Below are positions 4,940 to 21,841 of a stretch of DNA of 64,000 bases, piece after piece. This DNA comes from an uncultured Planctomycetaceae bacterium. Its GTDB lineage: Bacteria; Planctomycetota; Planctomycetia; Planctomycetales; Planctomycetaceae. The stretch covers positions 62,001 to 126,000 of the forward strand of contig CAXBME010000003.1 of the NCBI GenBank assembly GCA_963976765.1. The letters run 5' to 3'. The first letter of the stretch is position 1; every line of letters begins with the position of its first letter. The translations under genes and the position numbers were made by a program. The notes under the pieces are model-generated. The model had not been told where the DNA came from and ran no database searches. It worked only from the letters and a program-made list of their open reading frames with translations.

Positions 4940-6457
4940 TTACCCGGCGCCGACGTCGCTTTCGTAGTAACGGACCAGCGACTGGTTATCGAGTCGATTG
5001 ATCTCAACGTCGACCGGAGCCAGATCCGTCGGCAGACTGAACAGGCTGGAAAGCATTTCATCGTTCAGAAACCGCAGTTCGCCGGTCAGCTCGCCGGACA
5101 GCTTCCGAGGCGTTTCAAACGCTGAAAGACTCGCCAGCGCGAACCCCCAGTCGCCAAACGATGGCACGGCCGCATGAAATGGCCGCACATGGAAACCCGC
5201 TGCTTCCATCGTTCGGATGACGCACCAGTAAGCTTTCCGCGACAGAAGGGGCGACGTGCACTGAATGCAGACTCGCGAATCGGGACTCAACCGCTGAGCG
5301 AGCAGCCGATAGAAACGGGTCGTGTAGAGCTTGCCCAGTGAGAAGGAATTCGGATCCGGAAAGTCGATCAGCACCAGATCGAAATGCTCAGACACTGATT
5401 CCAGCCAGATCATTGCATCGTCGTTGACAATCGTGACTCGCGAATCTTTCAACGCACCGCCGTTCAACTTCGCCAGTGGCGGAAACGATTCGGAAAGAGC
5501 AGTCATCTCCGGGTCGATGTCCACCAGCGTCACGTGTTCAACACTCCGATACTTCAGCAGCTCCCGCAGAGCCAGCCCGTCACCCCCTCCCAGAATCAGC
5601 ACGTTTCGAATGGAACGTGCCGTCGCAACAGCCGGATGGACCAGCGCCTCGTGATACCGATATTCGTCCGACGAGCTGAATTGCAGATTCCCATTCAGGT
5701 ACAGCTGAAACCCCGTCCGGTTCTGCGTAACGACAATCCGCTGGTAAGCAGTCGTCTGCGTATGAACGATCGGGCTGGCGAACATGCTGTTTTCAGCGAG
5801 CGACGTCAGCGAGTCTGCCTTCACCAGCCCGGCCACAAGCAGCGTCAGCACCACAACAGCGCGAATACGCAACCCCGTCACGCTGCCAGCCAGAATCGGA
5901 CGCAGGAGCGACGTTCCCCACAGCCCGACGAGAGCGTTGAGAATTCCGAAGACCAGCGACGTTCGCACCAGCCCCAGCGTCGGCACCAGAAACATCGGAA
6001 ACATCAGCGACGCCACCAGGGCGCCGATGTAATCAAACGTCAGAACTTTGGAGACCAGGTCGTCAAAGTCCAGATGCCCTTTCAGAATCCGCATCAGCAG
6101 CGGAAGCTCCAGCCCGACCAGCACGCCGATCCCGAAGACGACTCCGTACAGAACCGGCAGAAACCAGGCCAGCTTCGCGAAGCATAGAAAGAGCAGCGGA
6201 GCACTCGTCCCTCCGAGCAGCGCTACCCCCAGCTCCACTTCAACAAACGTCCGGGCAACGTTTTTCTTCACGAACGACGATACCCAGGCACCTGCTCCCA
6301 GAGCTGACAGATAGACGCCAATGATCAGCGAAAACTGCGTTACCGAATCGCCGAGCACATAGCTGGCCAGCGTCCCGGCCAGCAGCTCGTAAACGAGTCC
6401 GCACGTCGCAATGATCAGAACGTTCAAATAAAGCAGAGACAGCGGCGCGTCATTCAT
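4940..6457 (-). CDS. speE: Membrane-anchored polyamine aminopropyltransferase (spermidine synthase-like)
   Basis: Multi-TM N-terminus ([17 protein letters not shown]...) plus aminopropyltransferase domain: [35 protein letters not shown]. Start placed at ATG 6457; the ORF-track extension to 6724 runs through a REP-like repeat. Confidence 0.88.
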
Positions 6458-6680
6458 CAGCGGCGAGCGAACTGGTTCGTTACCGGACGTCGCTTCTGCC
6501 TGCCGTGTCCCGTCAATCAGATTGCGATCGACTGTCGGCACCGACACTTCGGACCTGCCCACCAGCTCCACGACGATCTCGTCATCCGCGTCGAAATCGT
6601 CGGTCACTGAACACACCGCCTGACACTCACCTTTGAAACTCCAAAACCGCTGCGTTGAACTTGACTGCCCGTTAACAAAG

Positions 6681-6757
6681 TATGCCACTGGCTCTACCAG
6701 TGCAGATTTGCTTTCGGCGTTCACGCGAAGCCCTGCATTGGCTGAGCCTGTGGCACG
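6681..6757. repeat. REP/REPIN-like inverted pair, copy 1
   Basis: TATGCCACTGGCTCTACCAGTGCA ... TGCATTGGCTGAGCCTGTGGCACG; same 77-bp span and related sequence as 21912-21988. Confidence 0.75.
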
Positions 6758-6771
6758 CTTCCGATCGGGAA

Positions 6772-7068
6772 TCAGCCATGAATCGCCGCGGCGATGATGA
6801 TCGAAATCCCGATCACAATGGAGCCGACCATAATCCCCAGGGCCGTATTCTGATCCTCTTCGATTTCCTTCCAGAACGGAAGCGGCATCAGCTTGCTCAT
6901 CAAAACGATCGAAATCGCCAGCACGACCAGGCCGATCACCGCAAAAATGATTGCGGCGATGGCGTTCTGAGCAACCATCGCAAACCCGCCGCCATCCCCC
7001 TCAGCCGCCAGTAATGCCATTTCGAAACCATTCATCCCGGCCAACAATTGGCCCACGAAACTCGACAT
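6772..7068 (-). CDS. DUF350 family small membrane protein
   Basis: Two TMs flanking [15 protein letters not shown] and ending IIIAAAIHG, characteristic of DUF350; RBS GGAG. Confidence 0.85.
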
Positions 7069-7139
7069 GGTTCTCGCTCCTGATTCTTATTCATTCTCAA
7101 ATTGAGTGATCGATCAAAACGCCTGCTGAATGCGGCGTT

Positions 7140-7331
7140 CTACTTACCAAAATGAAAGCCGCCACTGCCACTCCCGCCGCCGCTGAAAAAGAAGAACCCG
7201 CTGCGGCCTGTTCCGCCGCTCGATTTACCATCGAAGAGGTCCGGAGCCTTCCACCCCAGGGCGAATGCCGCTCCCAGCCCAATGCACAGCGTCAGGCCAA
7301 CAACCTGATAGATTTTTGTAAGCATTGCCAC
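7140..7331 (-). CDS. Small single-TM peptide with Gly/Ser-rich tail ending in Lys
   Basis: 63 aa: TM segment then GKSSGGTGRSGFFFFSGGGSGSGGFHFGK; lies co-oriented between the DUF4178 and DUF350 genes. Confidence 0.7.
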   Translation of the reverse strand: MAMLTKIYQVVGLTLCIGLGAAFALGWKAPDLFDGKSSGGTGRSGFFFFSGGGSGSGGFHFGK

Positions 7332-7411
7332 ACCTTTCAGCGATTCGCCAGCGACTGTTCAGTCAGCAGTTCATCGTACGCTTCAGAATTCAACAGCAGG
7401 TCCGCACGTCA

Positions 7412-8983
7412 TCAATCATCCGAGGCGTACGGCGAGTAGTCACTTTCCGACCAGCGTTTCACATCGAAGCTGTGATTGACGATGAGGGCGCCAACCGGAA
7501 TAACCGACACAAGAAACAGTCCCCACGCAAGTACCCACGGGTCGGCCGAGTCGCTCATTGCAGCCGCGCCGAGATAAATCACCCCCATCGCCAACCCGAA
7601 CATCAGCCACTGCAGATAGATCCCTCGATCGCACGGAAACGGTTGGTTCGGGGCGACTTTCCATCCGCGAGGCAGTTCATGCTCCAGTTTGAAAGCTCCT
7701 TCGATGACTTCATGCTCAATGTACCTGCCGAGCGACACGTTGACCTCACCCAGATTCATCCGCTTGCCTGCCAGCTGATCTTCTGGAGAAGCCATTGCCA
7801 TCGAGCGTTCAACCGACATCGCGTACGGCGGGCAGATCAGGTCACGCGAGGTCACTTCTTCGCCGACTTCGACCTTCCAGTAAAACTCACCCAGCACGTA
7901 CTCCACCCGAGCAATCGCACGCTGAAACAGCTTGAATGTCTTTCCGTCCCAGGCCGCTGACGTTTTGTAGTCATGCACGTCGGCAGGCGAGAGCGGCTCG
8001 GAAAAACTCCAGTGCTCGTCGCTGTGGACCAGCCACCGAAACCCTACTTCCGTATTGTAGAGCAGGTACTCCGTCCAGAAGTATTTCCGGTCGAACGTCA
8101 CCGACCGCTGCATGAAGCCAATGACGATGTACTCAACATCGTAAAGCGTGCCTGTCGAACCGATCTCGATCAGTGGGTCAACTTTCGTCGTCAGCGTTTC
8201 CAGGTACTGAAGGTTGCCTCGGTCACAGTCGAGCACCGCGCCGCAGTACGGACAACCGACTCGCTTTGTTTCATCCGGAGCCTGCAACTTCAGCGAGCCG
8301 GCACACTGGGGACAACTGACATCCCTGGCGGCGATCCGTTTTACTTCTTTCTCCGCCGCTCGCAGACCAGACATACCGATCTCGTCGAGCGACACCTGCC
8401 AGCCGATATACCCCGCTGGCTGACTTCCGTAATCCAACGTGGCAAACTGACCGTCCGGCCCGTACAGATCGGCGAACGGGTGAGCCTCGCCAGGATGAAA
8501 GTCGAACGGAATTTCCCCCTCGGCTCCGGCAGCGGTTCCTTCGCCCACTTCCGCAACCGTGAACTCGTTATCGCCCAGTTTGATCCTCTCACCGGCTTCG
8601 AGCGAATCCAGACCGGGCAGTTCACTTCCGTCTTTCACCTTCTTCTGGAAGGTCATGTAGAAGCGGCCCTGAGCTTCCGCCAGCCAGCCCCACTTACCGT
8701 TGGGAAACTGAGCGTACCACTCGTCCCACACGCCGCCGGCTGAATGCTGATACTGAATCCGGCCAACGATCCGAAACGGCTTACCGCGAAACCTGCCTTT
8801 AACATCGAGGCTCAACGGAGACTGAGTTTCGACCAGATCGGCAACCTTGCCGTGATCTTCGAACTTCTTGTCCCCGCGCGCGACGACGCTCTGGCAGTAC
8901 GGGCAAATGGTGACCAGCGAGGTCCGCGACCTGAACTCAACGGGAGCAGCGCACGAGGGACACGGAGCTTCCAGTCGCGCCAT
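7412..8983 (-). CDS. DUF4178 domain protein with zinc-ribbons and two C-terminal TMs
   Basis: CPSC..CPYC and CPQC..CPYC pairs; two repeats of GRIQY/GFMQR..W(D/T)E(W/Y)..WL; YVLGEFYWKV motif; RBS GGAGAGG. Confidence 0.85.
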   Translation of the reverse strand: MARLEAPCPSCAAPVEFRSRTSLVTICPYCQSVVARGDKKFEDHGKVADLVETQSPLSLDVKGRFRGKPFRIVGRIQYQHSAGGVWDEWYAQFPNGKWGWLAEAQGRFYMTFQKKVKDGSELPGLDSLEAGERIKLGDNEFTVAEVGEGTAAGAEGEIPFDFHPGEAHPFADLYGPDGQFATLDYGSQPAGYIGWQVSLDEIGMSGLRAAEKEVKRIAARDVSCPQCAGSLKLQAPDETKRVGCPYCGAVLDCDRGNLQYLETLTTKVDPLIEIGSTGTLYDVEYIVIGFMQRSVTFDRKYFWTEYLLYNTEVGFRWLVHSDEHWSFSEPLSPADVHDYKTSAAWDGKTFKLFQRAIARVEYVLGEFYWKVEVGEEVTSRDLICPPYAMSVERSMAMASPEDQLAGKRMNLGEVNVSLGRYIEHEVIEGAFKLEHELPRGWKVAPNQPFPCDRGIYLQWLMFGLAMGVIYLGAAAMSDSADPWVLAWGLFLVSVIPVGALIVNHSFDVKRWSESDYSPYASDD

Positions 8984-9034
8984 CAGTCGTTCCCTCTCCA
9001 GTTCTTAGAAATCCTCAGCGTCCCACACACGTCA

Positions 9035-9085
9035 CAAACCCGAATTGCAGACGGGAATTGCAGACGGGAATTGCAAACCCGAATT
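9035..9085. repeat. 13-bp-period tandem repeat upstream of the DUF4178 operon
   Basis: CAAACCC-GAATTGCAGACGG-GAATTGCAGACGG-GAATTGCAAACCC-GAATT. Confidence 0.75.
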
Positions 9086-9595
9086 CTGTCACAACCCCCG
9101 CAGCACGTCGACCCTTCTCCAGAACTCGGCGACTCCAGCCACAACCACACGGAACCTATTCAAGAGCTGCGTACGCAATCCATCTCAACGGCTGCAAGCC
9201 AGACTCTTCGCAGGGCGCGTCAGCATCTTTCATAGGCTACGTCTTGACGCACCAGCAATCTGCCCCGTGACAAACTGCCTCGTGACGAACCGGTGCACTG
9301 GTCCTGCTTCTACACATGGGACGGCCGTACTGAATTCGCACGCGAGTCGTTTGATTACGAAGTCGCCCGAGTTGTTTCATCTCCTCTGCATGGAACGGCA
9401 CACGCAGATGATGAAATCGCGGTGTTCGTTGATATTGCGGAGGCAGTGTGAGGTGCTGACGGTTTCAGGGACAGGTAACGCCCGATGTCGTCAACTTCAC
9501 AGAAGAAGGCGAGTGAAGGCGTAGTTAAGAACTACCTCTGCAGAACGTCATCAATACGGTAGTAGTCTCAAGAAAACATTTGTGAGTAAGACGCA

Positions 9596-11521
9596 TCAAA
9601 GGTGACTGAGGTCGTGTTCATTTCCAAGTGCTTGCAGGAATTCGCCGATCCACGGTTCGTAGCGTTTCCATTTGGCGACGGACGTCTTGTAGATTGGTTT
9701 TCGAACCTGAAGTGGGTTTGTTTTGATTCGGCGGTCGGTCTCGTGGAACGAAAGGCAACTGTCTGACCACGGAAGTTCAAGGTACTCGATCAGTTCACGA
9801 GTTTTCTGCTCCTGATTGCTGGTCAGCTCTTCGTAGTGACTTGGATAGATTTCAGTGCCGAGCACCTTGTGCCAGTGTTTGCAGAGTTCGGCGTGGTGCC
9901 TGCAATAGTCCCCGAGTTCGTACAAGTCCCAACTGAATGGCTGCCCTTTGGCGAAGTATCGGAAGAAGCACGACATGGCGATGTCGCGGTAGTCTCGAAC
10001 GCAATGGACAATCTTTGCATTCGGCCAGAGAAGCCGGATGAGTCCGACATGGACGAGATTCTTCGGCATCTTGTCAACGACATGCTTTGCTTCGGGTGCC
10101 ATCTCCTTGAGTCTTGCCACATGCTCAGTTGCGAGTTTTCTGCCTGCTTCCTGCGTGAGCAAATCGAGACATTGCGGAAATGCTGTCTTCGGTTTCACTC
10201 CGGCAGGCATCCGTCGAAACATCCGCTCGACAAAGGGGAGTTCACCGGCACCGTGAACATCGGGATGGCTGGCGATGATCTGTTCGACAAGTGTGGTGCC
10301 GGACCGGGGCATACCGACAACAAAGATCGGAACAGACGAGTCGTCCGCAAAACGGTTTCCTACTGATTCGAATCGTTCTGCTGAGAAGTAATCAATCAGA
10401 GAATTCATCTGAACGCGAAGCTGCTCTGCGTCATGGTGGATCAACTGACGCTTCAGTTGATTGCCCTGTTTGTACTGGCTGAATGCTTCCTCAAAGCGTT
10501 CGGTGTCTTCGTACGCTTTCCCCAAAGCAAAGTGCATCTTCGAACGGGATTCCGGTGGAATCGTGTCCCGAGTAATGAGCGATTCAAGTTTTACAATAAT
10601 TGGATCGTCTGTTGTGATTTTCGCCGACTGACTGAGAGCAAGAAATGCTTCGGCATTCTGGGGAGCGATTTCAAGCACTCGATGAAGTCGTTGACGACCT
10701 TCATCAATTCGCCCCACTTGAACACAAGTAACGCCAAGACTTGTGAGGATTGGTGGTGCATCTGGATTCAGCGTGGCGGCTCGTTCCCATGTGGCGATCG
10801 CTTTATCCGTATCGCCCTGTAACTCGTAGACGTGCCCCAGACCATCAAGCCCGCGTACATTGGTCGGGCTGAGTTCGACAGCTCGCTCGAAGTAGGGAAG
10901 TGCCTGTTCGGGTTCATCCCGGTCAAGCCAGACAAAGCCCGTTTCGGTCAACGACGGGACGTGGTCTGGCACATACTCAAGTGCCTTCTCGTAACCTTCA
11001 ATGGCTTCATCGATCTGGCCGAGTGAATGCTGGGCTCTCGCTCGGTTGAAGATGACCTCGCCCGATTCGGGATTCAGTTTCAATGCCCGCTCCGCAACTC
11101 GAATCACTTCCTGAAACTGGCCGATGTCCTGTAAAGCGATCAGCAGATTCTTAATCGCGTCGAAATAGTCTGGCTGCCCGGCAATGGCCTGCCAGAAATG
11201 ATGGACTGCCGCTGCGAATTGCCCGTCTCGAACGTAAGCAACTCCCAGAGAGTTCTGGTACGCAGGAGCATCCGGTCTCAGCTCGACAGCACGCAATAGA
11301 TGCCCAAAAGCTATCTCCCGTCGCTTACGCTCCATCGCGATGACACCAAGCAAATGATGTGCATCTCCTGAATTCGGATCACTGATCAGCACACGGCGAA
11401 AAAGTTCATCAGCCGAATCAAACTTTCCCGATTTGTAGTCGGCTATTCCACGCTGAATGAGTGCAGCTTTCTGATCGGCCCGTTGCATGCAGTTGAGTCC
11501 TTCGAATGAATCGCCCGCCAA
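9596..11521 (-). CDS. TPR-repeat sulfotransferase family protein
   Basis: Multiple TPRs followed by PAPS-binding PIFVVGMPRSGTTLVEQIIASHP, VDKMP, IVHCVRD..DIAMSC, YEEL. Start may be ATG 11488. Confidence 0.9.
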   Translation of the reverse strand: MAGDSFEGLNCMQRADQKAALIQRGIADYKSGKFDSADELFRRVLISDPNSGDAHHLLGVIAMERKRREIAFGHLLRAVELRPDAPAYQNSLGVAYVRDGQFAAAVHHFWQAIAGQPDYFDAIKNLLIALQDIGQFQEVIRVAERALKLNPESGEVIFNRARAQHSLGQIDEAIEGYEKALEYVPDHVPSLTETGFVWLDRDEPEQALPYFERAVELSPTNVRGLDGLGHVYELQGDTDKAIATWERAATLNPDAPPILTSLGVTCVQVGRIDEGRQRLHRVLEIAPQNAEAFLALSQSAKITTDDPIIVKLESLITRDTIPPESRSKMHFALGKAYEDTERFEEAFSQYKQGNQLKRQLIHHDAEQLRVQMNSLIDYFSAERFESVGNRFADDSSVPIFVVGMPRSGTTLVEQIIASHPDVHGAGELPFVERMFRRMPAGVKPKTAFPQCLDLLTQEAGRKLATEHVARLKEMAPEAKHVVDKMPKNLVHVGLIRLLWPNAKIVHCVRDYRDIAMSCFFRYFAKGQPFSWDLYELGDYCRHHAELCKHWHKVLGTEIYPSHYEELTSNQEQKTRELIEYLELPWSDSCLSFHETDRRIKTNPLQVRKPIYKTSVAKWKRYEPWIGEFLQALGNEHDLSHL

Positions 11522-11736
11522 AAATTTGATCGGGCAAGATACGTGAACTGCCTGGCGTCAACCCCGCAGACACTGAATATATGAACTTTACAAATTTTTC
11601 GTGACGACCAGTATTCAGTTTGAATTCGTCCAGTACCCGGAATACTGTCCACGTCTGATTTCTGCGACATGATAGCATCTGTGATATGCGGAGAAACTTC
11701 CAGACAACTGACTTCAACTTCAGGGGAGACAGGGCC

Positions 11737-13890
11737 GTGGTATTTCCGAACTGGTTAGGCGAATTTGCAGACCGCATCAAAGCTCAGAGGCCAAAGCGAA
11801 CGAATCGGAAAGACAAGCAGCACCGTCGGCATGAAATCAGTGCTCCTGTTGAAGTTTTTGAGGATCGCACTCTGCTGGCCAGTACGCCGGTCGTTAATTT
11901 GACCTCAACACCGCCTTCAAATATCGACGAGGGCGACTCGTTCTCGATCAGCGGGACAGCTACCCATTCGGGCTCAGAAAGCATCAACGTCTATGTTCGC
12001 TGGTACGGTGGCACAGGTACCACAAGTTCATCTTCGTCAGCGTATTCAGATTCTGCTCAGATTTCGCCGGGTGGCTCTTTCAGTTTCTGGAACCAGTACA
12101 ACGACGATGACCAGCTTACGGTGAGCGTCTGGGCATCTGTGACTGACAGCGGAACGACGAGCACAGGAACGACTACTGGAGGATCGACAACGACAAGTGG
12201 GACAACGACAAGTGGGACAACGACAAGTGGGTCAACAGCCACAGGGTCGCAGACTCTCATGTCGACCCCTGATTCATATTCAGTGACAGTCGATAACGTG
12301 GCTCCTACTCTGAATGTGACTAATCCAACTGGCTCCTCTATTTCCGTTCTCCCCTACCAACCATTTACACTTTCGGGAAATGGAAGTGATGTTGGAGTGT
12401 CAGATTCATTGGCGCTGTCAGTTAATTGGGGAGAAGGCAGCTCTTCTCAGACAACTTCAATCAATAATAGCGGGTCATTCTCCATCGGTTACTCTTATGA
12501 GTTTCCTGGAACCAGAAATGTCACTCTCACACTTTCAGATGATGACGGCGGAAGTGATGCGAAATCAGTTCAAGTGAATGTGCTGCCAGATCCTGCTCCG
12601 GTCTTCTCAAATTTAATCTGGCCAACTGGTCCAATTGATGAAGGAAGTCAATTCCAAGTCAAAGGACGTCTTAATGACAATCAATATGATGATCTAACAC
12701 TGACGATTCATTGGGGAGACTCCTTGGACCCGTCGGGTAGCGGCATCGAAGTCCCTGTTGGACAGGATTTCACAGCTACCTATTCATATTATGATGACAT
12801 AATGTCAGGAACTGGATTGGGGATTACATACACGATTACGATGACCGCCACCGACAACGCCGGCAATTCTACATCTGTCACTCATTCTCTGGATGTCGAT
12901 AACGTTGACCCAACAGTCACACTCGACACTTTTCCCGATGAAGTAGACGTGCATGAGCCTTTTACCATATCGGGGACCGTCAGTGATCAAGGTGCTTTTG
13001 ACGATCTGACAGTCCTCCTTGATTGGGGAGACGGAAGTAGCTTAGAGGCTATTTATAATTTGTCAGACGGTGATACATTCGAAGCAAGTCACCAGTACTT
13101 AGTTCGCAAAGCGTTCACGGATTACGATGTAGTCGTCACCGTAATAGATGACAATTTTGGTACATCTTCTGTAACTGAAGCAGTACCGGACGATCCCGAA
13201 GTCATAGCATTGTTTGACGGAATCACAAACTACCAAGTGATTGACACTTTTGGTGCAACAATTGTTGTCACTCAATCATTTGGAACAGTGTCAGGCGGAA
13301 ATCCCGGGTGGCAACACTCTTTCCGCTACCTTCCATATCAGCCTGCTGACGGATCGACCGAGTTCGATGTCATCCAAGTCGCGAAAATAAGAAAGAAACT
13401 GCCAAATGGAAACTGGGGCTACTTCATTCCATCTCCTCCGGGAACTGATAGGGCTAACTACTACAATGAGGTCAACAGCAACGGCTACTTCGTTGATGTT
13501 GTGCCTGAAGACGGAGAGGCGGACGGCTGGTCACCATTCTGGTCCGATACTGTTGGAGGCAACGCTGCCAGCACAGATAGCAATGGATATTGGGAAATAG
13601 GCGGCTCATCAGATACGCCTATAGCTGCAGCTAATTCAACAACGCGTCACACAGTCAACGGCGTACTTGAATACCACGAAATGGAGTGGCGTTTTGAGGC
13701 AATAATCATGCAAAAGCCAAATGACGTTGAAGATTACCCTGAAGCATACATCGGAGGTATATCCTGGGGATTCTCAGTAGCACCTGATGGCTCAGCAGCC
13801 ACTCTCGGTGACTCGGCAATCAACACGATGTCAGATTCATTCAGCGACGCATTATCGAGTTTCTATAGCGAGAAACATCCTGAAGAATGA
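11737..13890 (+). CDS. Secreted LEPR-XLL-type protein with PKD-like Ig repeats and an unrecognised C-terminal domain
   Basis: GTG 11737 after GGGGAG; basic N-region then VEVFEDRTLLAS; repeated (N/H/D)WG(D/E)GS and TLSDDDGG/TATDNAG/NVAPT PKD signatures; Thr/Gly linker. Confidence 0.85.
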   Translation: MVFPNWLGEFADRIKAQRPKRTNRKDKQHRRHEISAPVEVFEDRTLLASTPVVNLTSTPPSNIDEGDSFSISGTATHSGSESINVYVRWYGGTGTTSSSSSAYSDSAQISPGGSFSFWNQYNDDDQLTVSVWASVTDSGTTSTGTTTGGSTTTSGTTTSGTTTSGSTATGSQTLMSTPDSYSVTVDNVAPTLNVTNPTGSSISVLPYQPFTLSGNGSDVGVSDSLALSVNWGEGSSSQTTSINNSGSFSIGYSYEFPGTRNVTLTLSDDDGGSDAKSVQVNVLPDPAPVFSNLIWPTGPIDEGSQFQVKGRLNDNQYDDLTLTIHWGDSLDPSGSGIEVPVGQDFTATYSYYDDIMSGTGLGITYTITMTATDNAGNSTSVTHSLDVDNVDPTVTLDTFPDEVDVHEPFTISGTVSDQGAFDDLTVLLDWGDGSSLEAIYNLSDGDTFEASHQYLVRKAFTDYDVVVTVIDDNFGTSSVTEAVPDDPEVIALFDGITNYQVIDTFGATIVVTQSFGTVSGGNPGWQHSFRYLPYQPADGSTEFDVIQVAKIRKKLPNGNWGYFIPSPPGTDRANYYNEVNSNGYFVDVVPEDGEADGWSPFWSDTVGGNAASTDSNGYWEIGGSSDTPIAAANSTTRHTVNGVLEYHEMEWRFEAIIMQKPNDVEDYPEAYIGGISWGFSVAPDGSAATLGDSAINTMSDSFSDALSSFYSEKHPEE
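12186..12230 (+). repeat. Three perfect 15-bp tandem copies encoding a TTTSG linker
   Basis: GACAACGACAAGTGG x3. Confidence 0.95.
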
Positions 13891-13915
13891 AAAGCATCAA
13901 TGATGCTCAGATAGT

Positions 13916-14452
13916 ATGCACAAACATTGGATCCGAAAATTATTATTTGGAGTAACTTTCTGTCTCTTTTTCTGCGCCAGCATATTCTCGGTACTGGAGT
14001 ACGTGCAATGGAAATACATGATCCATCTCGTCAACCGAATTGAAGGCCGTCGCGGCCCATACACGTTGGAGCACAAGTCGTATCCTTTTAATGTTGAGTG
14101 GATTCGGAAAATTCCGTATGTAAAAGAGGTGACTTATTGTTTTGAAGAAATATATTTAAGAAACATGATGCTGACTTCAGACGACTTTCGTGCAGTCGCT
14201 TCTCAGTCTCAACTTAGGATGCTTGATTGTTCTGGAAGCAAACTCGATCTAGGCCATATCCAACAGCTAAAAAACCTACAACAACTCGCCATCGTGAACG
14301 CTAGTAGTACCAACTTGGATGATTCTGCTTTTGAATACATATTAGGACTACCAGCGATAAAGGAGCTAGACGTTTCAAACACATACGTTTCCAGCGAAGC
14401 TGTTCGCAGGGCAAGGATGGCGAATTCGGAATTAGTGATTCACTGGCCGTAA
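13916..14452 (+). CDS. Membrane-anchored leucine-rich-repeat protein
   Basis: N-terminal TM, then LRMLDCSGSKL, LAIVNASSTNL, IKELDVSNTYV repeats; AT-rich; 25 nt after the PKD gene. Confidence 0.75.
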   Translation: MHKHWIRKLLFGVTFCLFFCASIFSVLEYVQWKYMIHLVNRIEGRRGPYTLEHKSYPFNVEWIRKIPYVKEVTYCFEEIYLRNMMLTSDDFRAVASQSQLRMLDCSGSKLDLGHIQQLKNLQQLAIVNASSTNLDDSAFEYILGLPAIKELDVSNTYVSSEAVRRARMANSELVIHWP

Positions 14453-14456
14453 CCCT

Positions 14457-15708
14457 CAGGGCGATTGCGCCATGATGGGCAATCTGCAAAACTGAGGCAG
14501 CGGCCTGTTGCTTGGGGTGGCGGGCGATTGAATATTGCCTCAGGACTGGATACGGACATGTCAAAATCACAGGGATGTGCGCAGTTGCGTGATCACTTTT
14601 CGGAGCTGACGGACCCTCGTACGGGGAAGGTCACTCACCCGTTGTTGAATATTATCACGATCACGGTTTGTGCGGTGATCTGCGGGGCCGACGACTTTGT
14701 GGCTATCGCGGAGTTCGGACGTTTGAAGCGAAAGTGGCTGGCGAAGTTTCTTGATCTGTCGAACGGCATCCCATCGCACGACCGGTTTAATCAGGTTCTG
14801 GCGGCGGTTCGGCCAGCCGAGTTCGAGAAGTGTCTGCTGAGCTGGATTGTGGCTCTGCATGAAATCACGGACGGTCAGATTATCGCTATCGACGGCAAGA
14901 CGTTGCGTCGCAGTTACGATCGTGCGAGTTCCAAATCGGCCATTCACATGGTCAGCGCGTGGGCCAGCGAGAATCACATTTCTCTCGGGCAGGTCGTGGT
15001 TGATGAGAAGAGCAACGAGATCACAGCGATCCCGAAACTGCTGCAGATGCAGGAAATCAACGGCTCGCTGGTCACCATCGACGCGATGGGTTGTCAGGTG
15101 ACAATCGCTGAAACGATCGTCGATCAGCAGGCAGATTATGTACTGGCGGTCAAAGGCAACCAGCCGACTCTACACGATGGAGTCGTCTCTCACTTCGCCG
15201 TTCACCTGAGTGATGACAACGTCTTCAAAGGCCGCGGTTTTCATCGGACGAAGGAGAAAACACACGGTCGCGAGACCGAACGGGAATACTTCGTGTGTTC
15301 CGTGCTTGACGATCTGCCCGATGCTTCCCGCTGGCCAAAGCTGCGAGCGATCGGCATGACGGTCAACCGGACGCTGCGTGAGGGGAAGGAAACGATCGAA
15401 GGTCGTTATTACATTCTTAGTAGAAAGCTGACGGGCAGGCAGTTTGCCGAAGCCGTCCGAGGCCACTGGTCCATCGAAAACTCTCTGCACTGGCAACTGG
15501 ATGTGACCTTTGGAGAAGACCAGTGTCGAATCCGAAAAGGCCACGCAGACGCCAACTTCAGTCTGCTTCGTCGGCAGGCATTGAGCTTGCTGAGGAACGA
15601 ACGGACATCGAAAGTGGGAATCAAAAACAAACGACTCTCAGCAGCACTCAACGAAAACTATCTGCTCAAAGTACTGTTTGCAGCATGACCTAACGTGCAA
15701 TCGCCCTG
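14457..15708 (+). mobile_element. ISAs1-family insertion sequence (1252 bp)
   Basis: Terminal inverted repeats CAGGGCGATTGCGC / GTGCAATCGCCCTG (13/14 match) around the transposase; flanks (CCGTAACCCT / GTTGCCAATC) show no target duplication. Confidence 0.93.
14558..15688 (+). CDS. ISAs1 family DDE transposase
   Basis: DPR, IPSHDRF, IAIDGKTLRRS, KSNEITAIP, TIDAMGCQ, VKGNQP, HGR, HWSIENSLHWQLDVTFGED motifs. Confidence 0.96.
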   Translation: MSKSQGCAQLRDHFSELTDPRTGKVTHPLLNIITITVCAVICGADDFVAIAEFGRLKRKWLAKFLDLSNGIPSHDRFNQVLAAVRPAEFEKCLLSWIVALHEITDGQIIAIDGKTLRRSYDRASSKSAIHMVSAWASENHISLGQVVVDEKSNEITAIPKLLQMQEINGSLVTIDAMGCQVTIAETIVDQQADYVLAVKGNQPTLHDGVVSHFAVHLSDDNVFKGRGFHRTKEKTHGRETEREYFVCSVLDDLPDASRWPKLRAIGMTVNRTLREGKETIEGRYYILSRKLTGRQFAEAVRGHWSIENSLHWQLDVTFGEDQCRIRKGHADANFSLLRRQALSLLRNERTSKVGIKNKRLSAALNENYLLKVLFAA

Positions 15709-16192
15709 GTTGCCAATCCTGTCCAAATACGAAATCTACATTCGGCTATCCGAGGCCGCCAAAACACTTGATCGCAGCTGCACAGAAACCGAACGCGTAC
15801 ACGAGTTGACTAAGGTTCGAAACGAATTTGTCCACCCGAAGATGCAATCGATTTCTGCTACGGTAGGTGCCTTCGAACAACAAGGTGAAAACGTCGCCCT
15901 TCCGTTGACGCTCGACGGAGAACACTGGAACGCTGTTGGTATCCCGAAACGTCCGCTCTTCTGGTCAGCTGACAACGCCAAGTCCGCCTTCACCGCTGTG
16001 GTTACGTTCTTGAGAATGGTAATTTGTGATTACGTCCACATGTCGCCGGAGGACGCGCGGTATCACTTGCACTCGCGAGTGGAGATTGGCACGGCAGCAA
16101 CAATCGCCACATTTGACGAGTTTGTTTCCGAACTTACTGCCGAAGATCTCGGCGTAGATGTCGCGTTTCTCGGTATCTCGCCACACCCATGA
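15709..16192 (+). pseudogene. 5'-truncated cassette ORF with HEPN-like RxxxxH motif
   Basis: Frame is open from the IS end with no native start; LTKVRNEFVHPK; followed by attC1. Confidence 0.6.
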
Positions 16193-16217
16193 CTTAGTTG
16201 GCGGATTGAACACGGCT

Positions 16218-16308
16218 GCCGAACAATGCGTTCAACCGGAGCGACCGTCGGGTGCGTCTTCTGAAATCCATGTCGCTGGCGGCCGCCCGACGATGTGGGT
16301 CGTTATGT
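16218..16308 (+). other. attC site 1 (91 bp)
   Basis: R'' GCCGAAC, 5 nt, L'' GTTCAACC, degenerate L', R' GTTATGT. Confidence 0.75.
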
Positions 16309-16687
16309 GGGAAGAAGTGGTTGCTGGATCTGGTGGTAGTTGATTGTGTGTTCGGTCGGTGCTCGGTCGAGAATCGTTTGATTGACTTGTCCGGCCTGAC
16401 GTAGTGGCGTGAGAAGCTGGTGGTACACGGTCAGGTGAGTTGCTCGTTCTGGTGTTGCGGTTGCTGCGTCCAGAGATCGGGCATGGGGAGTTGCGGTTTC
16501 CAATCCCGTTGGCGCTGGCGTGCTCAGCTTTGTGGTAAACATTTTCCAAATGGCTGGTTTGCACTCGACAATTGAATTGTCGGTTTTCAGAATTCCACGT
16601 CAGCTTCAATAAGGTGCTCGGTCGAAAAAGTGCTCGATCACTGCCGCGATCGACTGCCGGCTTGAAGTGTTCTCAGTTACAAACCCC

Positions 16688-16778
16688 ACATAACAAAGCG
16701 ATCAACCCGAGCCGCCGGCCACCTGGATTTTTCCATTGCCAAATAACTCGCGCCGGCCGGTAAATTTGGTGGTTCGTC
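16688..16778 (+). other. attC site 2 (91 bp)
   Basis: R'' ACATAAC, L'' GATCAACC, L' GGTAAAT, R' GTTCGTC; CCCACATAAC complements upstream GTTATGTGGG (16302-16311). Confidence 0.8.
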
Positions 16779-16805
16779 GAAAAAATCGCGTAGTTCTACA
16801 CAACC

Positions 16806-17150
16806 ATGAAAAAACTGAAGTTGATTCTCTCGGCTGTTCTGTTTGTTTTCGGAGTTCTGATCACTTGCACATTCGTAATAAATAATCTTGCTCCAAGCCC
16901 GGTGACGGCTGCAAAGGCACACTCTGTCGAGCAAGGATGGACTGACAATGAACTCTCACTGCTGGGATTCGAGACATCTGCCAAAGTCAGTGGCAGCGAA
17001 GGCACTGTTCGCCTCAAGGGCAACAAGCCGGATCGACAGGAGACAATTCGCGTTGAACTTCGCAAGCCCCTATTTGCAACAACGTGGCAGGTTGTTAAAT
17101 ACGACGAGTCACGTGTCGACGAAGATCGCCCCAAAGATGCAATACCCTGA
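16806..17150 (+). CDS. Cassette-encoded small secreted/membrane-anchored hypothetical protein
   Basis: 114 aa, MKKLK + hydrophobic helix; starts shortly after attC2. Confidence 0.75.
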   Translation: MKKLKLILSAVLFVFGVLITCTFVINNLAPSPVTAAKAHSVEQGWTDNELSLLGFETSAKVSGSEGTVRLKGNKPDRQETIRVELRKPLFATTWQVVKYDESRVDEDRPKDAIP

Positions 17151-17247
17151 GCCTTCACCTTTACTGTTTTGGGACCGAAAACTGCGGGAAAGTATACTTA
17201 GCTGTGGTTGCACGATCACTCGAACGCTACTTTGACTCCGCAAAGCC

Positions 17248-17338
17248 GACGAACCATCACATGCACGGGAGCGTGCGTGACCAGCGGGTTTTGAACTCAA
17301 CGTCGACTCCCACCTCCCCGTGATGCGGGACGTTCGGC
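17248..17338 (+). other. attC site 3 (91 bp)
   Basis: R'' GACGAAC, L'' CATGCACG / L' CGTGATG (one extra base in L''), R' GTTCGGC. Confidence 0.88.
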
Positions 17339-17376
17339 GACCAGAGAGCCACGCCAAGTGACTATGCGGATGAGCT

Positions 17377-17772
17377 ATGTCAGTCCCCGATGAATCCGAC
17401 AGACCTGCCCCTCCTACCGAGCTTGCGGAACTGACTCTCCGCCAGATCGGCCATAAGATTAGAGCATGCATAGGCTCGGTTCTTGCTGGACTCACTCCTC
17501 GCTCTATCGATGCTCGCATCAAAACGCTTGCGGGTACCGAGGAACCGACCTGGGGAGGCGATACCCGTTTACTTCTTTGCTGGTTTTTGGTGTGGCTGTC
17601 CGTCCTACTTTCGGCAGTCGTTTCTCCGATCATTGTCTTGTTTCAGTACATCTTTCAGGAACGTCGTTGGCGGCTGGTACTGGTGTTCTTTGTAGGTACC
17701 CCTCTCGTCCTGGCAGTGGTACTTTTCGCGGTACTTGCCATCGGTATGGCGGGCTTTCAGTTTGGCAAGTAG
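17377..17772 (+). CDS. Cassette-encoded two-TM hypothetical protein
   Basis: 131 aa with two C-terminal hydrophobic helices; stop 4 nt before attC4. Confidence 0.7.
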   Translation: MSVPDESDRPAPPTELAELTLRQIGHKIRACIGSVLAGLTPRSIDARIKTLAGTEEPTWGGDTRLLLCWFLVWLSVLLSAVVSPIIVLFQYIFQERRWRLVLVFFVGTPLVLAVVLFAVLAIGMAGFQFGK

Positions 17773-17776
17773 GCTC

Positions 17777-17867
17777 GCCGAACCAGACATTCAACCCGAG
17801 CGGCGCCTCAAATGAGTCTTCGATTCAATCTTACTCGGCGACCGCCGAGTTAACCTGGTCGTTAGTC
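17777..17867 (+). other. attC site 4 (91 bp)
   Basis: R'' GCCGAAC, L'' ATTCAACC, L' AGTTAAC, R' GTTAGTC. Confidence 0.85.
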
Positions 17868-18103
17868 GGTGTGATCCTCGGTCTATTACTGGTGCTCGGT
17901 CAATGTCCTCGACCGAAAGTTCAGGCGGTCAAACCTGTCGTCTGTGCCTTCGCCGTCTATGGGGCACTTCGAAACTCAAGCGGTGAAGAATTAAGGAAGG
18001 CAAGGGGCGGCTTCGGTCGTCCGTTTATCTTGCCTGGCGGACTGACTCGTCGCACAATCAACGCTGATCATAATCCTCGGTCAGTAGCTTCGCTCATGAC
18101 ACC

Positions 18104-18182
18104 GACTAACAAAGCAATGAACCGGAGCACTCGGCAAGCCCGCTCTGAATTCACCGTCAAACTATCGTGCCGAGTGTTAGGC
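18104..18182 (+). other. attC site 5, truncated (79 bp, L' missing)
   Basis: R'' GACTAAC, L'' AATGAACC, inner stem CACTCGGCA/TGCCGAGTG running directly into GTTAGGC. Confidence 0.75.
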
Positions 18183-18217
18183 GGCTTCACACGTTATCAA
18201 ACAGATCACCCAACAAA

Positions 18218-19276
18218 ATGAAAACGACCACCATCATCTTCCTGCTTCTCGCATGCTCGAAGTGCGCATTTTCGCAGACCGTACCAACGACACAGCAAAC
18301 GCTCACGAAGCCGCAGATCGTGCAGGAGGCGAAAGGCTACAATTCGTGGCCGATGATTCAGGCCCTCGGAGAAAAGCTGGTGTGCGTCTATAGCCGCGGT
18401 TCAGGACATACGATCGGGGAGGACGACCGCGCGGTTTACGCGCGCACCTCCGTAGACGGAGGGGAAACGTGGACGGCTGAAGCGGTCGTCGCCAACTCGC
18501 CGGGCTACGGCGATGTCGAGGTGGGGAAGGGGCTGGATTCCAACGGGGCGATGCTCCTTTGGGTGCGCCGGGTTGGCAAGGAGTGGCACCACGACCTCTA
18601 TCGTACTACGGATGGTGTCACTTTCACTTTGGTGGCGACGCCGCAGCTTGACGTCCGCCCGATGCAGATCACCGACATCTTTAGCGTGCCAACCATCGGG
18701 CTCATGGCCCTGTGGTTCGCTGGCGACTATGGAGATAAACCGACGAATGCGTGGGGCACGCTGACAAGTAGCGACAACGGCGAAACCTGGAAGCAGACCC
18801 CCATCGAGTCCGGCCTCCCCAAAGCGCAGTGGCCAACTGAGCCCGCCGCGGTTTATCTCGGCGATGGCAGGATTCTCGCGATCGGTCGCACAGAGGTGGC
18901 AAGCACTCAATTCCAGTTGGTCTCATCTGACCACGGCGTGACTTGGAAGCGTGCACCAACCAACATCGGCGATGTCAAGGCCTCCACCCCAAGCCTGATT
19001 TTTGATACCGAAACCGGCCTGCTGAGCAACTACTACTATCATCGCGGGGCCGGCGTGCTGCGTCGTCGCGTCGTCGATCCCGAGCATGTGTTCGACCGCC
19101 CGCGGAATTGGCCGGAGTCCGAGCCGGTCGCTATAGGCAGCAAGGTCACATTCGACGCTGGCAATGCCAACGCCACAGTGATCGGAAACACCCATTACAT
19201 TACCTTCTACTCTGGCAAAGCTCCTGACACAGCTGTTCTCGTCTCCGCGCTCCGGGCACCGCCAGATGGGAATTAA
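18218..19276 (+). CDS. Cassette-encoded secreted sialidase-family (BNR/Asp-box) protein
   Basis: Signal peptide MKTTTIIFLLLACSKCAFS; Asp-boxes SVDGGETW, TTDGVTF, SSDNGETW, SSDHGVTW; ATG 18218. Confidence 0.85.
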   Translation: MKTTTIIFLLLACSKCAFSQTVPTTQQTLTKPQIVQEAKGYNSWPMIQALGEKLVCVYSRGSGHTIGEDDRAVYARTSVDGGETWTAEAVVANSPGYGDVEVGKGLDSNGAMLLWVRRVGKEWHHDLYRTTDGVTFTLVATPQLDVRPMQITDIFSVPTIGLMALWFAGDYGDKPTNAWGTLTSSDNGETWKQTPIESGLPKAQWPTEPAAVYLGDGRILAIGRTEVASTQFQLVSSDHGVTWKRAPTNIGDVKASTPSLIFDTETGLLSNYYYHRGAGVLRRRVVDPEHVFDRPRNWPESEPVAIGSKVTFDAGNANATVIGNTHYITFYSGKAPDTAVLVSALRAPPDGN

Positions 19277-19304
19277 CGGCTCCCAGGAGCAGCGTTCAAC
19301 CGTC

Positions 19305-19395
19305 GCCTAACCATGCGGTGAATCGGAGCCGCCGTTCACGAGAGTTCTGAGGTTAAAGTCTTTTGGCGGCGGCTTGGTTACCGCCAGCGCTATTG
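19305..19395 (+). other. attC site 6 (91 bp; R' core reads GCT instead of GTT)
   Basis: R'' GCCTAAC, L'' GGTGAATC, stem GCCGCC/GGCGGC, L' GGTTACC, R' position GCTATTG. Confidence 0.8.
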
Positions 19396-19781
19396 GGCAC
19401 AGGGGCATTCGGTCGAAATGTCAGGCTGGCAGGTGCCCGGTCCTCCGGTCTTTGTTCGGTCAAAGAATTGGGCTGTCCAGCTATCAGTTGGTGTTTTCGG
19501 TTGAGTGCCCAACGCTGGGCAACGCTCAGAGGGAATAGTGGTGTCTGGTTTTCCTTTGCGTCTTTAGCATCCGGGTAAGCTCAGCGGATGGTGCTTTTGC
19601 TTTGCCACTGCGTGGTAAGTGTTTCGGCAGGGCGCGTCGGAAGTTAAAGAGGCAGCCGCCAGGGGGCCTTCGAGAAGTTGTCCGGCCTTGGAAAAGCGTT
19701 GGGCGCGTTGGAGCCAACGCTGATTTCAAAACTCGGCAACGCTGTCAGAAAGTGCTCATGGCTGGTCCTCGGCCACACTCC

Positions 19782-19800
19782 AAATAACAAAGCGTTCGTC
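19782..19800 (+). other. attC site 7 remnant (R'' + spacer fused to next core site)
   Basis: AAATAAC-AAAGC-GTTCGTC; the AAC-AAAGC spacer matches attC2/5/8 and GTTCGTC complements R'' of attC8. Confidence 0.65.
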
Positions 19801-19839
19801 ACCTGACATGCATCAGTTGAGAATTAGGGAATACAAACC

Positions 19840-20304
19840 ATGAGCGAACGAAATCGACGGGATCTATCACTGGACACATTGGATGATGTCGTGGCTGAGA
19901 TCGAACGCCTCGCTGCAGGTGAGGTCAAGACGATGGGAAAGCACAGCTTTCCCCAAATCGTACGTCACCTGGCACTTTCCAACAGCATGATGACCGGGCG
20001 CATCCCAGCTCCACAACCACCGTTGATTATGAAACTGCTGCTCCCGTTCATTCGCTCATCGATTCTGAAGGGGCCCGTCAAACCAGGCGTTAAGCTTCCG
20101 GCAAATGCTGAGGCCGTGTTCTGGTCGGATGAAGAAATTTCCCTCCAGGACGCTATTCAGATGCTGAAGGAGTCGGTTGCGCACTACAAGGAACATGGAC
20201 CATTACCGGTCCATCCAATCTTCGGCAAGGCATCACGCGAGCAATTGGACAGGCTCACATGCAGCCACGCGGCGATGCATTTAAGCTTCGTTCACCCATC
20301 ATAA
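19840..20304 (+). CDS. Cassette-encoded DUF1569 (DinB-like) protein
   Basis: RRDLSLDTLDDVVAEIERL, QIVRHLA, HPIFG, HAAMHLSF His pattern. Confidence 0.85.
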   Translation: MSERNRRDLSLDTLDDVVAEIERLAAGEVKTMGKHSFPQIVRHLALSNSMMTGRIPAPQPPLIMKLLLPFIRSSILKGPVKPGVKLPANAEAVFWSDEEISLQDAIQMLKESVAHYKEHGPLPVHPIFGKASREQLDRLTCSHAAMHLSFVHPS

Positions 20305-20320
20305 CGAAAACCAGACCGCC

Positions 20321-20411
20321 GACGAACAAAGCCGTGAACCGAGGAGGCGAAGTCGGGCGGATTTGAAATGGACAATCTTTCGTCGCCGCCCGGTTACGGC
20401 CATCGTTATGC
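20321..20411 (+). other. attC site 8 (91 bp), last of the array
   Basis: R'' GACGAAC, L'' CGTGAACC / L' GGTTACG, stem GGCGA/TCGCC, R' GTTATGC. Confidence 0.9.
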
Positions 20412-20611
20412 GACGTGGCGACCTGCCTCTGTTTGCACATATTGCCACATCAACATGCAATGTTGCCACTTGCCAGAACCGACAGCAAGAGGACTCTGGT
20501 CCAGAGCGTTCCGCGAATATAGTTATGCAAACAGACACGTCGCAGCATTTTGGGGTGAGACTTGAAGTCTCGACTGCAATGAGGAACAGATCGCCAATCT
20601 CAATTCAAACC

Positions 20612-21841
20612 TTACCTGCCGATGCAGTAGAGGTTTCTGGTGGAGCGGATGAAGAGCTGACCGGCGCTGGGGGTAATGGATGCTCGGAAGATTTCTTCGT
20701 CGTCGGTTTGCAGGTTGCAGCGACTGACAATCTTCAGGGTGTCGGCGGGCTCGACGACAATGGCTTCTCCGCCATCTTCGATGAAGGCGACCAGGCCGTC
20801 ATAGGCGACAGGGCTGGCGGTAACGGTCCCGCCGATGCGTTCGGCCCAGAGTTGTGCGCCGGTGGTCGCGTTGTAACAGGTCAGAATCCCGCCCTGCATG
20901 CTCATAGCGAGGAGGTAGTTACCGACGACGATCGGTGACGGCAAATCTCGACCTTTACGCGGCTGGTTCCAAACGATGTTGCTGGCGGTAACGTCGCCCT
21001 GGCCACCTGGTTTGACCGCAAAGAGTGACGGGCCTCGACCGGGAATCACGTAGACCAGACCGTTGGCTGGTGTGACGGTCGGTGTGCCTCGGCCTTTGGT
21101 TCCGGAGACTCGCCAGAACTCTTCGCCATTGACGGGGTCGTAGGCACGAATTCCGGTATGCCCCTGCACGACCAGTTCTCGGCGACCGGCGGCTTCGATC
21201 AGGATCGGAGTGCTCCAGCCGCGTTGTTGTTCACGCGGCGCCGTCCAGAGTGTGTCCCCGGTCAGTTTGTCGACAGCCAGCAGAAAGCCTTTGTCGTCCG
21301 AGTCGCAGTTCTGAATAAGCATATTGTCGATCAGGATCGGGCTGGCAGCCGTGCCCCACGGTCCGGGAAACTCTCCGAGGTCGCGATTCCAGATCTGCTT
21401 GCCGTCCATCGACAGGCAGAACAACCCACCGCCCTGGCCGAAGAAGCACCAGACTCGTTCGCCGTCGGTCACGCAGGTTGACGATGCCCAGCCATTCATC
21501 GCGTGTGAATCTTCTGGTCTGCCTTTCCACAAGCTTGTCTGCCAGACAACGTCTCCGGTTTTTCGGTCGACGCACATCGCAACCCGTTCGGCACCTCGAT
21601 CGAGAGCAGCCGTGAGAAACAGTTGCTCGCCCCAGATAATGGGCGTCGACTGCCCGGCTCCGGGCAGCGGAGCCTTCCACTTAACGTCCGACGGACTCCA
21701 TTTGCGAGGGAAGCCGGTTTCGCTTGAGTGGCCATCTTGATTGGGGCCACGCCAGCGCGGCCAGTTAGAATCGGCCGAAGCGGTGTCGAAAGAGGACAGT
21801 GCAAAGCAGGTCAGACAGGCCAGGGCGGTGAGTCTCGACAC
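20612..21841 (-). CDS. PQQ-binding-like beta-propeller repeat protein
   Basis: Signal peptide, NWPRWRGP, repeated (A)SP..G..W blades. Start moved to GTG 21841 (RBS GGAG); the ORF-track extension crosses the REP-like repeat. Confidence 0.88.
   Translation of the reverse strand: MSRLTALACLTCFALSSFDTASADSNWPRWRGPNQDGHSSETGFPRKWSPSDVKWKAPLPGAGQSTPIIWGEQLFLTAALDRGAERVAMCVDRKTGDVVWQTSLWKGRPEDSHAMNGWASSTCVTDGERVWCFFGQGGGLFCLSMDGKQIWNRDLGEFPGPWGTAASPILIDNMLIQNCDSDDKGFLLAVDKLTGDTLWTAPREQQRGWSTPILIEAAGRRELVVQGHTGIRAYDPVNGEEFWRVSGTKGRGTPTVTPANGLVYVIPGRGPSLFAVKPGGQGDVTASNIVWNQPRKGRDLPSPIVVGNYLLAMSMQGGILTCYNATTGAQLWAERIGGTVTASPVAYDGLVAFIEDGGEAIVVEPADTLKIVSRCNLQTDDEEIFRASITPSAGQLFIRSTRNLYCIGR

Follow-up and report, generated by a model that had tools for sequence, protein, structure and literature searches.

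Does a run of gene cassettes with no integrase beside it still take part in integron exchange, or has it been left behind? The question is raised by positions 15709-20411 of a 64-kb stretch of DNA (the window, C3:62001-126000) from an uncultured Planctomycetaceae bacterium. An earlier interpretation made from the letters alone, here called the sequence-only reading, saw in it eight attC-like sites with traces of cassette-by-cassette assembly and named it a CALIN (clustered attC sites that have no integron integrase with them), either served in trans or orphaned. The classification was right: the array comprises seven attC sites and one remnant, and no intI is found on its contig, C3 (477 kb). 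We consider it quite probable that this integrase-less integron cassette array was once part of a chromosomal integron and is today a stranded fragment in slow decay.

The assembly totals 8.57 Mb in 95 contigs and is 100% complete by marker genes; it was analysed within a set of 41 genomes (40 relatives and the present one), seven of them congeners. Assignment to the planctomycetes, also made in the sequence-only reading, fits the PSCyt2/PSD1 protein, DUF1569 protein and sulfatases encoded in the window.

Layout and damage of the attC sites

Parsing from each R'' box places eight attC junctions within 15709-20411, all on the + strand and just where the sequence-only reading had put them. Six sites (S1-S4, S6, S8) measure exactly 91 nt, with boxes and spacers in the order R''(7)-5-L''(8)-51-L'(7)-6-R'(7), the size and spacing already reported for them. 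This is the classical attC layout of the 59-base-element literature, in which L'' is one base longer than L' and the outer spacers are of 5 and 6 nt. A covariance model, R1, was trained on these six sites, and its scores are given with the sites below.

S1, 16218-16308, + strand: 91 nt; R'' GCCGAAC, R' GTTATGT; R1 77.6 bits
S2, 16688-16778, + strand: 91 nt; R'' CCCACATAAC, complementary to GTTATGTGGG at 16302; R1 69.5 bits
S3, 17248-17338, + strand: 91 nt; L'' CATGCACG / L' CGTGATG, extra G in L''; R1 78.3 bits
S4, 17777-17867, + strand: 91 nt; R1 80.3 bits
S5, 18104-18182, + strand: 79 nt, damaged; R1 covers 18104-18148 only, 18.6 bits
S6, 19305-19395, + strand: 91 nt; good L''/L' stem, damaged crossover site; R1 74.4 bits
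S7 (remnant), 19782-19800, + strand: AAATAAC-AAAGC-GTTCGTC (R''-5 nt-R')
S8, 20321-20411, + strand: 91 nt, the last site of the array; L'' CGTGAACC / L' GGTTACG, extra G; R1 80.8 bits

AAC is present in all eight sites and GTT in seven. The extra G in L'' is clear in S3, S6 and S8, and L pairing is poorer in S1 and S2. Elsewhere in the window R1 finds nothing above 18.6 bits, the score of S5 itself, and no attC lies upstream of 16218.

Three consecutive sites, S5-S7, are damaged, each in a different way, and here three details of the sequence-only reading need correction. S5 is canonical on its left side, but from the stem it passes directly into R' (GTTAGGC), with neither L' box nor 6-nt spacer. 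The R' of S6 is GCTATTG, the conserved GTT having changed to GCT. In S7 everything between the first 5-nt spacer and R', 72 nt with L'' at its start and the 6-nt spacer at its end, is missing, and by the model alone the remnant is at chance level (8.4 bits, E 8.4); we accept it as a site solely because its left half with the preceding 8 nt resembles S2 (83% over 24 nt) and because the junction logic described below fits. An aberrant IntI crossover at L'' was considered for S7, but we prefer a slippage deletion, which would have occurred between the GTTC that starts L'' and the GTTC of R'; cleavage at the L box is not known from attC recombination.

Crossover footprint

Complementarity was measured as contiguous nucleotides outward from GTT/AAC for every R' junction against every R''. 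Between the 5' core of each cassette and the R'' of that same cassette it reaches 10, 8, 9, 12, 8, 1 and 7 nt at the seven junctions. The single low value belongs to the GCT site S6, which still matches the R'' of its cassette at 7 of 9 positions; the other six are the pairs quoted in the sequence-only reading, and they are exact. Its companion observation, that R'' and R' of one site mismatch while the two ends of one cassette are complementary, holds as well, with 1-5 nt for same-site pairs against 7-12 nt for own pairs in six junctions. Over the 57 non-own pairings in the 8 x 8 matrix, among which the same-site pairs are counted, the mean is 3.5 nt and the maximum 8. When the seven junctions were permuted against the seven downstream R'' boxes, the observed sum was attained by 2 of 5040 arrangements, a tie that arises because GACGAAC is common to S3 and S8.

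Similar repeats elsewhere, whose lack of such complementarity had been named in advance as the sign of a wrong interpretation, carry it too. In the other arrays of the present genome and five congeners, at least 7 nt are complementary in 19 of 35 adjacent own pairs, compared with 180 of 2174 non-own and 5 of 47 same-site pairs, and most own pairs below 7 nt span gaps of more than 900 nt, where a site was probably missed. The complementarity of 5' core and own R'' is the footprint of circular cassettes inserted singly by IntI crossover at G/TT, as had been proposed; the permutation test and the independent arrays both support this.

Hairpin conservation and the attC class of the genus

Genome-wide, R1 matches 15 sites on four contigs, nine of them outside its training set (two on C2, three on C53, four on C75). 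With filters off, two or three weaker attC matches are added, giving about 18-20 detectable sites on four contigs of this fragmented assembly. The C2 sites, at 521098 and 521981 (+), stand just beyond a remnant of intI (-), in the canonical divergent arrangement. As the criterion for an integron integrase we took a full-length match to TIGR02249 above its curated cut-off of 265 bits, including the IntI-specific insertion. R1 sites diverge from intact IntI genes above that cut-off in three congeners:

G003:C14: IntI 6567-7502 (+); attC 3144, 3711 (-)
G004:C754: IntI 2406-3341 (+); attC 1123 (-)
G001:C328: IntI 1716-2648 (-); attC 3884 (+)

Covariation was assessed in an alignment of 54 sites from the present genome and five congeners, 48 of which had not been used to build R1. 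Over the bulged L helix and AAC/GTT, 93.9% of cells are paired, against 78.0% in shuffled alignments (0 of 500 as high) and 17-44% with the pairing partner slid. Taken separately, the bulged L helix is paired in 92.8% of cells and AAC/GTT in 97.5%, and in the L box 7 of 9 pairs have changed in a compensatory way. In predicted bottom-strand folds the stem is visible in S4, S6 and S8. When circular sites are reconstituted by adding the first bases of the cassette's own sequence, the R box is predicted to close with 8-12 pairs in six of six cases, and each reconstituted site is predicted to be 0.6-7.5 kcal/mol more stable than its in-array counterpart (6/6). The sequence-only reading would have been in difficulty had the sites not folded as attC hairpins with extrahelical bases; the covarying helix and the closing R box instead agree with it. 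By sequence comparison, the window sites are the attC class of this genus, which is homogeneous, about 91 nt long and linked to IntI genes.

In two attC-like sites, one in the last 120 nt of C2 and one at 1885-1970 of C75 (L026), a short palindrome, CCCAGACAATC...GATTGTCTGGG, breaks up the left half or stands in its place. The 3' half of the C75 site is 94% identical to that of S8.

Integron integrase

No TIGR02249 match above the cut-off exists in the whole 8.57-Mb assembly, and contig C3 gives none at E <= 0.001, so that the earlier statement that no integrase is recognisable in the 64 kb extends to the window's contig. A genome-wide search for intI, which the sequence-only reading had advised, turns up one recognisable copy, an internally deleted remnant at C2:519297-519847 (-) that matches TIGR02249 in two pieces of 114.2 and 132.8 bits. 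Aligned with the intact 1392-nt gene of G003, it covers nt 1-731 (92% identity) and 1107-1392 (94%) with a 10-nt overlap; hence 385 nt are absent and the frame is shifted. The ends of the deletion share a 10-nt repeat. The deleted part corresponds to about residues 241-369 in G003 protein numbering, which we take to hold the box I arginine region of the catalytic core and the IntI-specific insertion.

Two other tyrosine recombinases, on C33 (330 aa, 217.6 bits) and C20 (486 aa, 206.7 bits), fall below 265 bits and were rejected as integron integrases. Both match TIGR02249 in two stretches that skip model positions ~178-239, where the IntI-specific insertion lies, and their scores against Xer models are similar. 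Xer-like recombinases of the C33 type are found in three congeners within attC arrays or adjoining them, pointing either way, and may be an element that inserts into arrays:

G002:C100 (L129), ~2900-3980: C33-type recombinase
G004:C754, 220-750: C33-type recombinase
G003:C14, 7-390: C33-type recombinase

TIGR02249 is matched above its cut-off in 14 of the 41 genomes, including 4 of the 7 congeners. The IntI of this genus is long: that of G003 has 463 aa, and the open frames in congeners span 464-549 aa. With a congener IntI as query, 80 IntI loci were retrieved; they come from many phyla and are 42-62% identical to it. About 145 residues form an N-terminal extension before the usual IntI core (L024, which is C2:512887-522886, at 6393-7399; L031 at 1063-2454). 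The C2 pseudogene retains the extension, and alignments with a few distant IntI loci take it in as well (query residues 15-458 and 26-457).

Cassette contents

The cassettes delimited by the eight junctions, with the tail that follows them, are listed here; the first abuts an insertion sequence (IS), and ORF denotes an open reading frame.

Cassette 0, 15709-16302, + strand: frame open from the IS boundary to 16192 (160 aa)
Cassette 1, 16303-16772, + strand: without convincing ORF; member of a ~380-nt ORF-less family with GTGCTCGGTCRA motifs
Cassette 2, 16773-17332, + strand: ORF 16806-17150, 114 aa, hydrophobic N-terminus; no Pfam, NCBIfam or PADLOC family
Cassette 3, 17333-17861, + strand: ORF 17377-17772, 131 aa, hydrophobic stretches by eye; no Pfam, NCBIfam or PADLOC family
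Cassette 4, 17862-18176, + strand: 315 nt, ORF-less; one GGTGCTCGGTCAA motif
Cassette 5, 18177-19389, + strand: ORF 18218-19276, 352 aa, BNR/sialidase-like (PF13088, PF02012), hydrophobic N-terminus
Cassette 6, 19390-19794, + strand: ORF-less; second member of the ~380-nt family
Cassette 7, 19795-20405, + strand: ORF 19840-20304, 154 aa, DUF1569/DinB-like (PF07606, E 8.1e-16)
Tail, 20412-20606, no strand assigned: 195 nt between the last R' and the conserved chromosome; no convincing ORF

Five cassettes thus carry one + strand ORF each, the probably truncated cassette 0 included, and three (1, 4 and 6) are ORF-less. Promoter-like sites in the array are at chance level (2 against 3.0 expected). 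Scans with Pfam, NCBIfam and PADLOC found no defence, resistance or toxin family among the ORFs scanned; more narrowly, PADLOC, applied to the five cassette ORFs of the + strand and to one minus-strand ORF, gave no defence match, and NCBIfam gave no family for the five cassette proteins scanned. The cassette 0 protein contains RNEFVH, an Rx4H motif, and has an Atlas lead of 0.79 to HEPN_LA2681 that is too weak to use (unnamed clusters reach 0.94-0.96); it belongs to no Pfam, NCBIfam or PADLOC family, and a word-index protein search returned only itself.

The ~380-nt ORF-less family comprises cassettes 1 and 6, C75:670-1056 (L026) and the copy of the latter at the end of C53 (C53:25811-26197). 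A profile built from the first three ORF-less members finds all four, with no further genome match below E 0.38; mean column identity is about 51%, and copies of GTGCTCGGTCRA stand near both ends, always on the array strand. The family also carries the motif GGTGCTCGGTC, which has 7 of its 19 genome-wide occurrences inside cassette arrays, and a related motif, G[CT]TCGGTC[AG]A, was not found in nine congener array loci. We do not claim cassette 1 as a structured RNA (fold z -1.59, with 6 of 100 shuffles folding as well).

A DNA search of the seven congeners found none of the window cassettes, matching only one attC and a BNR homologue at 71% identity. That homologue, in G006, is part of a 520-aa gene without an adjoining attC (12.7 bits, E 0.074) and was rejected as a clue to cassette origin.

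Insertion sequence and genomic setting

Upstream of the array come an ISAs1-family element and then genes for LRR-like, PKD-domain and sulfotransferase proteins; the adjoining intI and attI of a complete integron are missing.

14457-15708, + strand: ISAs1-family IS; transposase 14465-15688 (NF033564, 411.8 bits)
9047-20606, no strand assigned: strain-specific segment, 11.5 kb, holding the array, the IS and the TPR-sulfotransferase, PKD and LRR-like genes
9596-11521, - strand: TPR-sulfotransferase
11686-13890: PKD-domain protein, 734 aa
13916-14452: LRR-like protein, 178 aa, ending 4 nt before the IS

The IS has perfect 12-nt terminal inverted repeats (14457-14468 / 15697-15708), but its flanks, GTAACCCT / GTTGCCAA, show no target-site duplication. 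Two congeners have copies at 92% identity that coincide exactly with 14457-15708 and so confirm its limits, and a third has a partial 91% copy. In the present assembly the IS occurs once. It cuts the 5' end of the array, and its transposase gene is co-oriented with the array. The array is likely to have been truncated at this end, because cassette 0 has an open frame that starts right at the edge of the IS, and because the S1 R'' (GTTCGGCAG) has no partner upstream.

We regard 9047-20606 as strain-specific because, apart from the IS, one attC and the 71% BNR homologue, the seven congeners match only 8000-9046 and 20607 onward. The sulfotransferase, PKD and LRR-like genes (window 9047-14456) have no homologue in those genomes by DNA search, and GC content falls to 42-53% in 9200-14400. 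Both flanks of the segment adjoin distant C3 blocks in congeners, which places the array between two synteny breaks: the right flank is preceded in 3 of 3 congeners examined by a block that here lies inverted at C3:455255-463566, and the left flank is followed in 2 of 2 by a block that here lies inverted at C3:241130-246490. The congeners examined have no array at this locus, and the intI locus is likewise not syntenic.

The junctions C3:71047/246490 and C3:82607/455255 describe two overlapping rearrangements relative to congeners, consistent with inversions of ~175 kb and ~373 kb. In each rearrangement one breakpoint coincides with an end of the 11.5-kb segment; the partner breakpoints showed no repeats. 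That attC x attC recombination caused the inversions is not supported, since C3:445000-456500 and 245000-256000 give no attC better than 15 bits.

Origin and fate of the array

In the history that we favour, the IntI of this lineage would first have captured the cassettes singly. The array would then have been cut from attI and intI, and its upstream part lost with any Pc promoter, in a rearrangement in which the IS probably took part. Without a working IntI the sites would have drifted, losing an L' box in one, changing GTT to GCT in another and suffering a 72-nt hairpin deletion in a third. With no working IntI and with S5-S7 damaged, cassettes 4-7 would therefore be fused and immobile; cassettes 1-3 should still be excisable if IntI were supplied. 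Expression would come only by read-through, for example from the co-oriented transposase gene. Contigs from two marine-metagenome DNA runs that fall on the stretch are short, of low depth and without joints, and are uninformative on excision or variants. Of the two fates offered by the sequence-only reading, "orphaned" fits better and "served in trans" fits less well, because the only recognisable intI carries a 385-nt deletion, three sites are damaged, the IS cuts the array and the surrounding segment is strain-specific.

Several points weigh against this account. Five sites (S1-S4, S8) look intact, so that decay is partial and mobilisation in trans possible, and the gaps of a 95-contig assembly could hide an intact intI. 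With one copy of the IS in the genome and no array at either partner breakpoint (C3:246490, C3:455255), no route of the array to its locus can be traced; the synteny comparison is moreover unrooted as to the ancestral arrangement. Truncation of cassette 0 is weakly indicated, by a 44-codon open frame and the absent R'' partner. The covariation alignment was fitted to R1, which favours structure, a concern limited by the slid controls and the 48 independent sites. Finally, single-site fold energies are unremarkable (bottom-strand z from -2.25 to +0.43).

If the cassettes were instead a live reservoir, they would be excised and reinserted by an integron integrase that is encoded elsewhere in the cell, in an assembly gap or on a plasmid, or that arrives by transfer. 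The full layout kept by five of the eight sites (R1 69-81 bits) would suit such use, as would cassette contents unique among eight congeneric genomes, which suggest recent turnover, and an intI remnant still 92-94% identical to the intact congener gene, which points to recent inactivation; mobilisation of CALINs in trans has been proposed in two studies (PMC4889954; 10.1101/2025.06.18.660453). Yet an assembly complete by markers yields no TIGR02249 match above the cut-off, its best full-length recombinases (C33 and C20, 218 and 207 bits against 265) skip positions 178-239 and score similarly against Xer models, and three consecutive junctions are damaged; we hold a live reservoir to be quite improbable. 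A different origin for the same sites, as intergenic palindromes of another kind (REP-like elements or terminators) that separate genes by chance, might be read from the weak single-site fold z-scores and from the lack of any Rfam match at E <= 1 in 9000-21000. It is scarcely credible in view of the canonical attC features, a crossover footprint specific to own-cassette pairs, the restriction of matches to a few clusters (15 on four contigs in 8.57 Mb) and the adjoining intI genes in four genomes.

The array might also have been built in place, its first cassette entering a secondary GTT site (attG-type) and later ones the attC of the first, with no link to intI at any time. Eight cassettes at one site would then need repeated attC x attC insertions, a less favoured reaction, and the 11.5-kb foreign segment, the IS without target duplication and the two synteny breaks fit a rearrangement better; the left end, where a secondary site would show, has been removed by the IS. 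What speaks for construction in place is that the three congeners whose right flank was examined have no array at the locus, that cassette insertion outside att sites has been reported (10.1101/2022.09.11.507474), and that Cury et al. name creation at secondary sites as a possible origin of CALINs (PMC4889954). On balance we hold it to be quite improbable. The stranded-fragment account can also be pressed further, to the claim that one genome displays the whole death sequence of a chromosomal integron (385-nt deletion in intI, an array broken at an IS and at inversion breakpoints, three modes of attC failure) and that its private ~380-nt GTGCTCGGTCRA cassettes are functional non-coding elements, regulatory RNAs or protein-binding modules, and not junk; in this extended form we find it rather doubtful.

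Comparison with known integrons

CALINs were defined by Cury et al. in 2016 (PMC4889954), who count 279 in complete genomes, note integrons in Planctomycetes and propose that CALINs arise by loss of intI or by rearrangement that splits an integron. The present array resembles those described there in having at least two attC sites on one strand with no intI within 4-10 kb, and in its cassettes of unknown function, lack of resistance genes and nearby IS. It is the same in kind, with the difference that the history can here be followed within a single genome, where intI survives in deleted form on a different contig, the cut end is marked by an IS and attC sites are damaged in three ways.

Uniform attC sites of 90-92 nt within genome and genus recall both sedentary chromosomal integrons of the Vibrio superintegron type and the planctomycete attC class of Ghaly et al. 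2021 (PMC8352920), who built taxon-specific attC models for 11 taxa, Planctomycetes among them. The preponderance of small genes of unknown function and ORF-less cassettes is another likeness; a difference is that only ~18-20 sites are detected here, scattered on four contigs. Cury et al. call an integron sedentary if its attC sites number more than 19 or if every genome of the species has it; our figures are ~18-20 sites and one genome per species.

A parallel in decay is Xanthomonas, where (10.1101/2025.06.18.660453) intI has been disabled by deletions, frameshifts or stops in many lineages, arrays are frozen, and CALINs occur away from intI. An inactivated intI with a CALIN at a separate locus is common to both cases (see also Gillings et al. 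2005, as cited there). They differ in phylum and in setting: the Xanthomonas integron occupies the conserved ilvD locus, whereas the intI and CALIN loci here are non-syntenic with congeners.

CALINs, planctomycete integrons and intI decay are already published (PMC4889954, PMC8352920, 10.1101/2025.06.18.660453); the array is ordinary in kind and leaves the picture of integrons in general unchanged. Its additions are small: attC sites that decay in three ways within one array, and ORF-less cassettes that form a family private to this genome. It offers a clean, internally documented integrase-less array in a planctomycete-type genome and ties the ~91-nt attC of the genus to an IntI with a long N-terminus. 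Its value is that of a natural experiment, in which intact and damaged attC sites of one class lie adjacent and the features required by IntI become directly testable.

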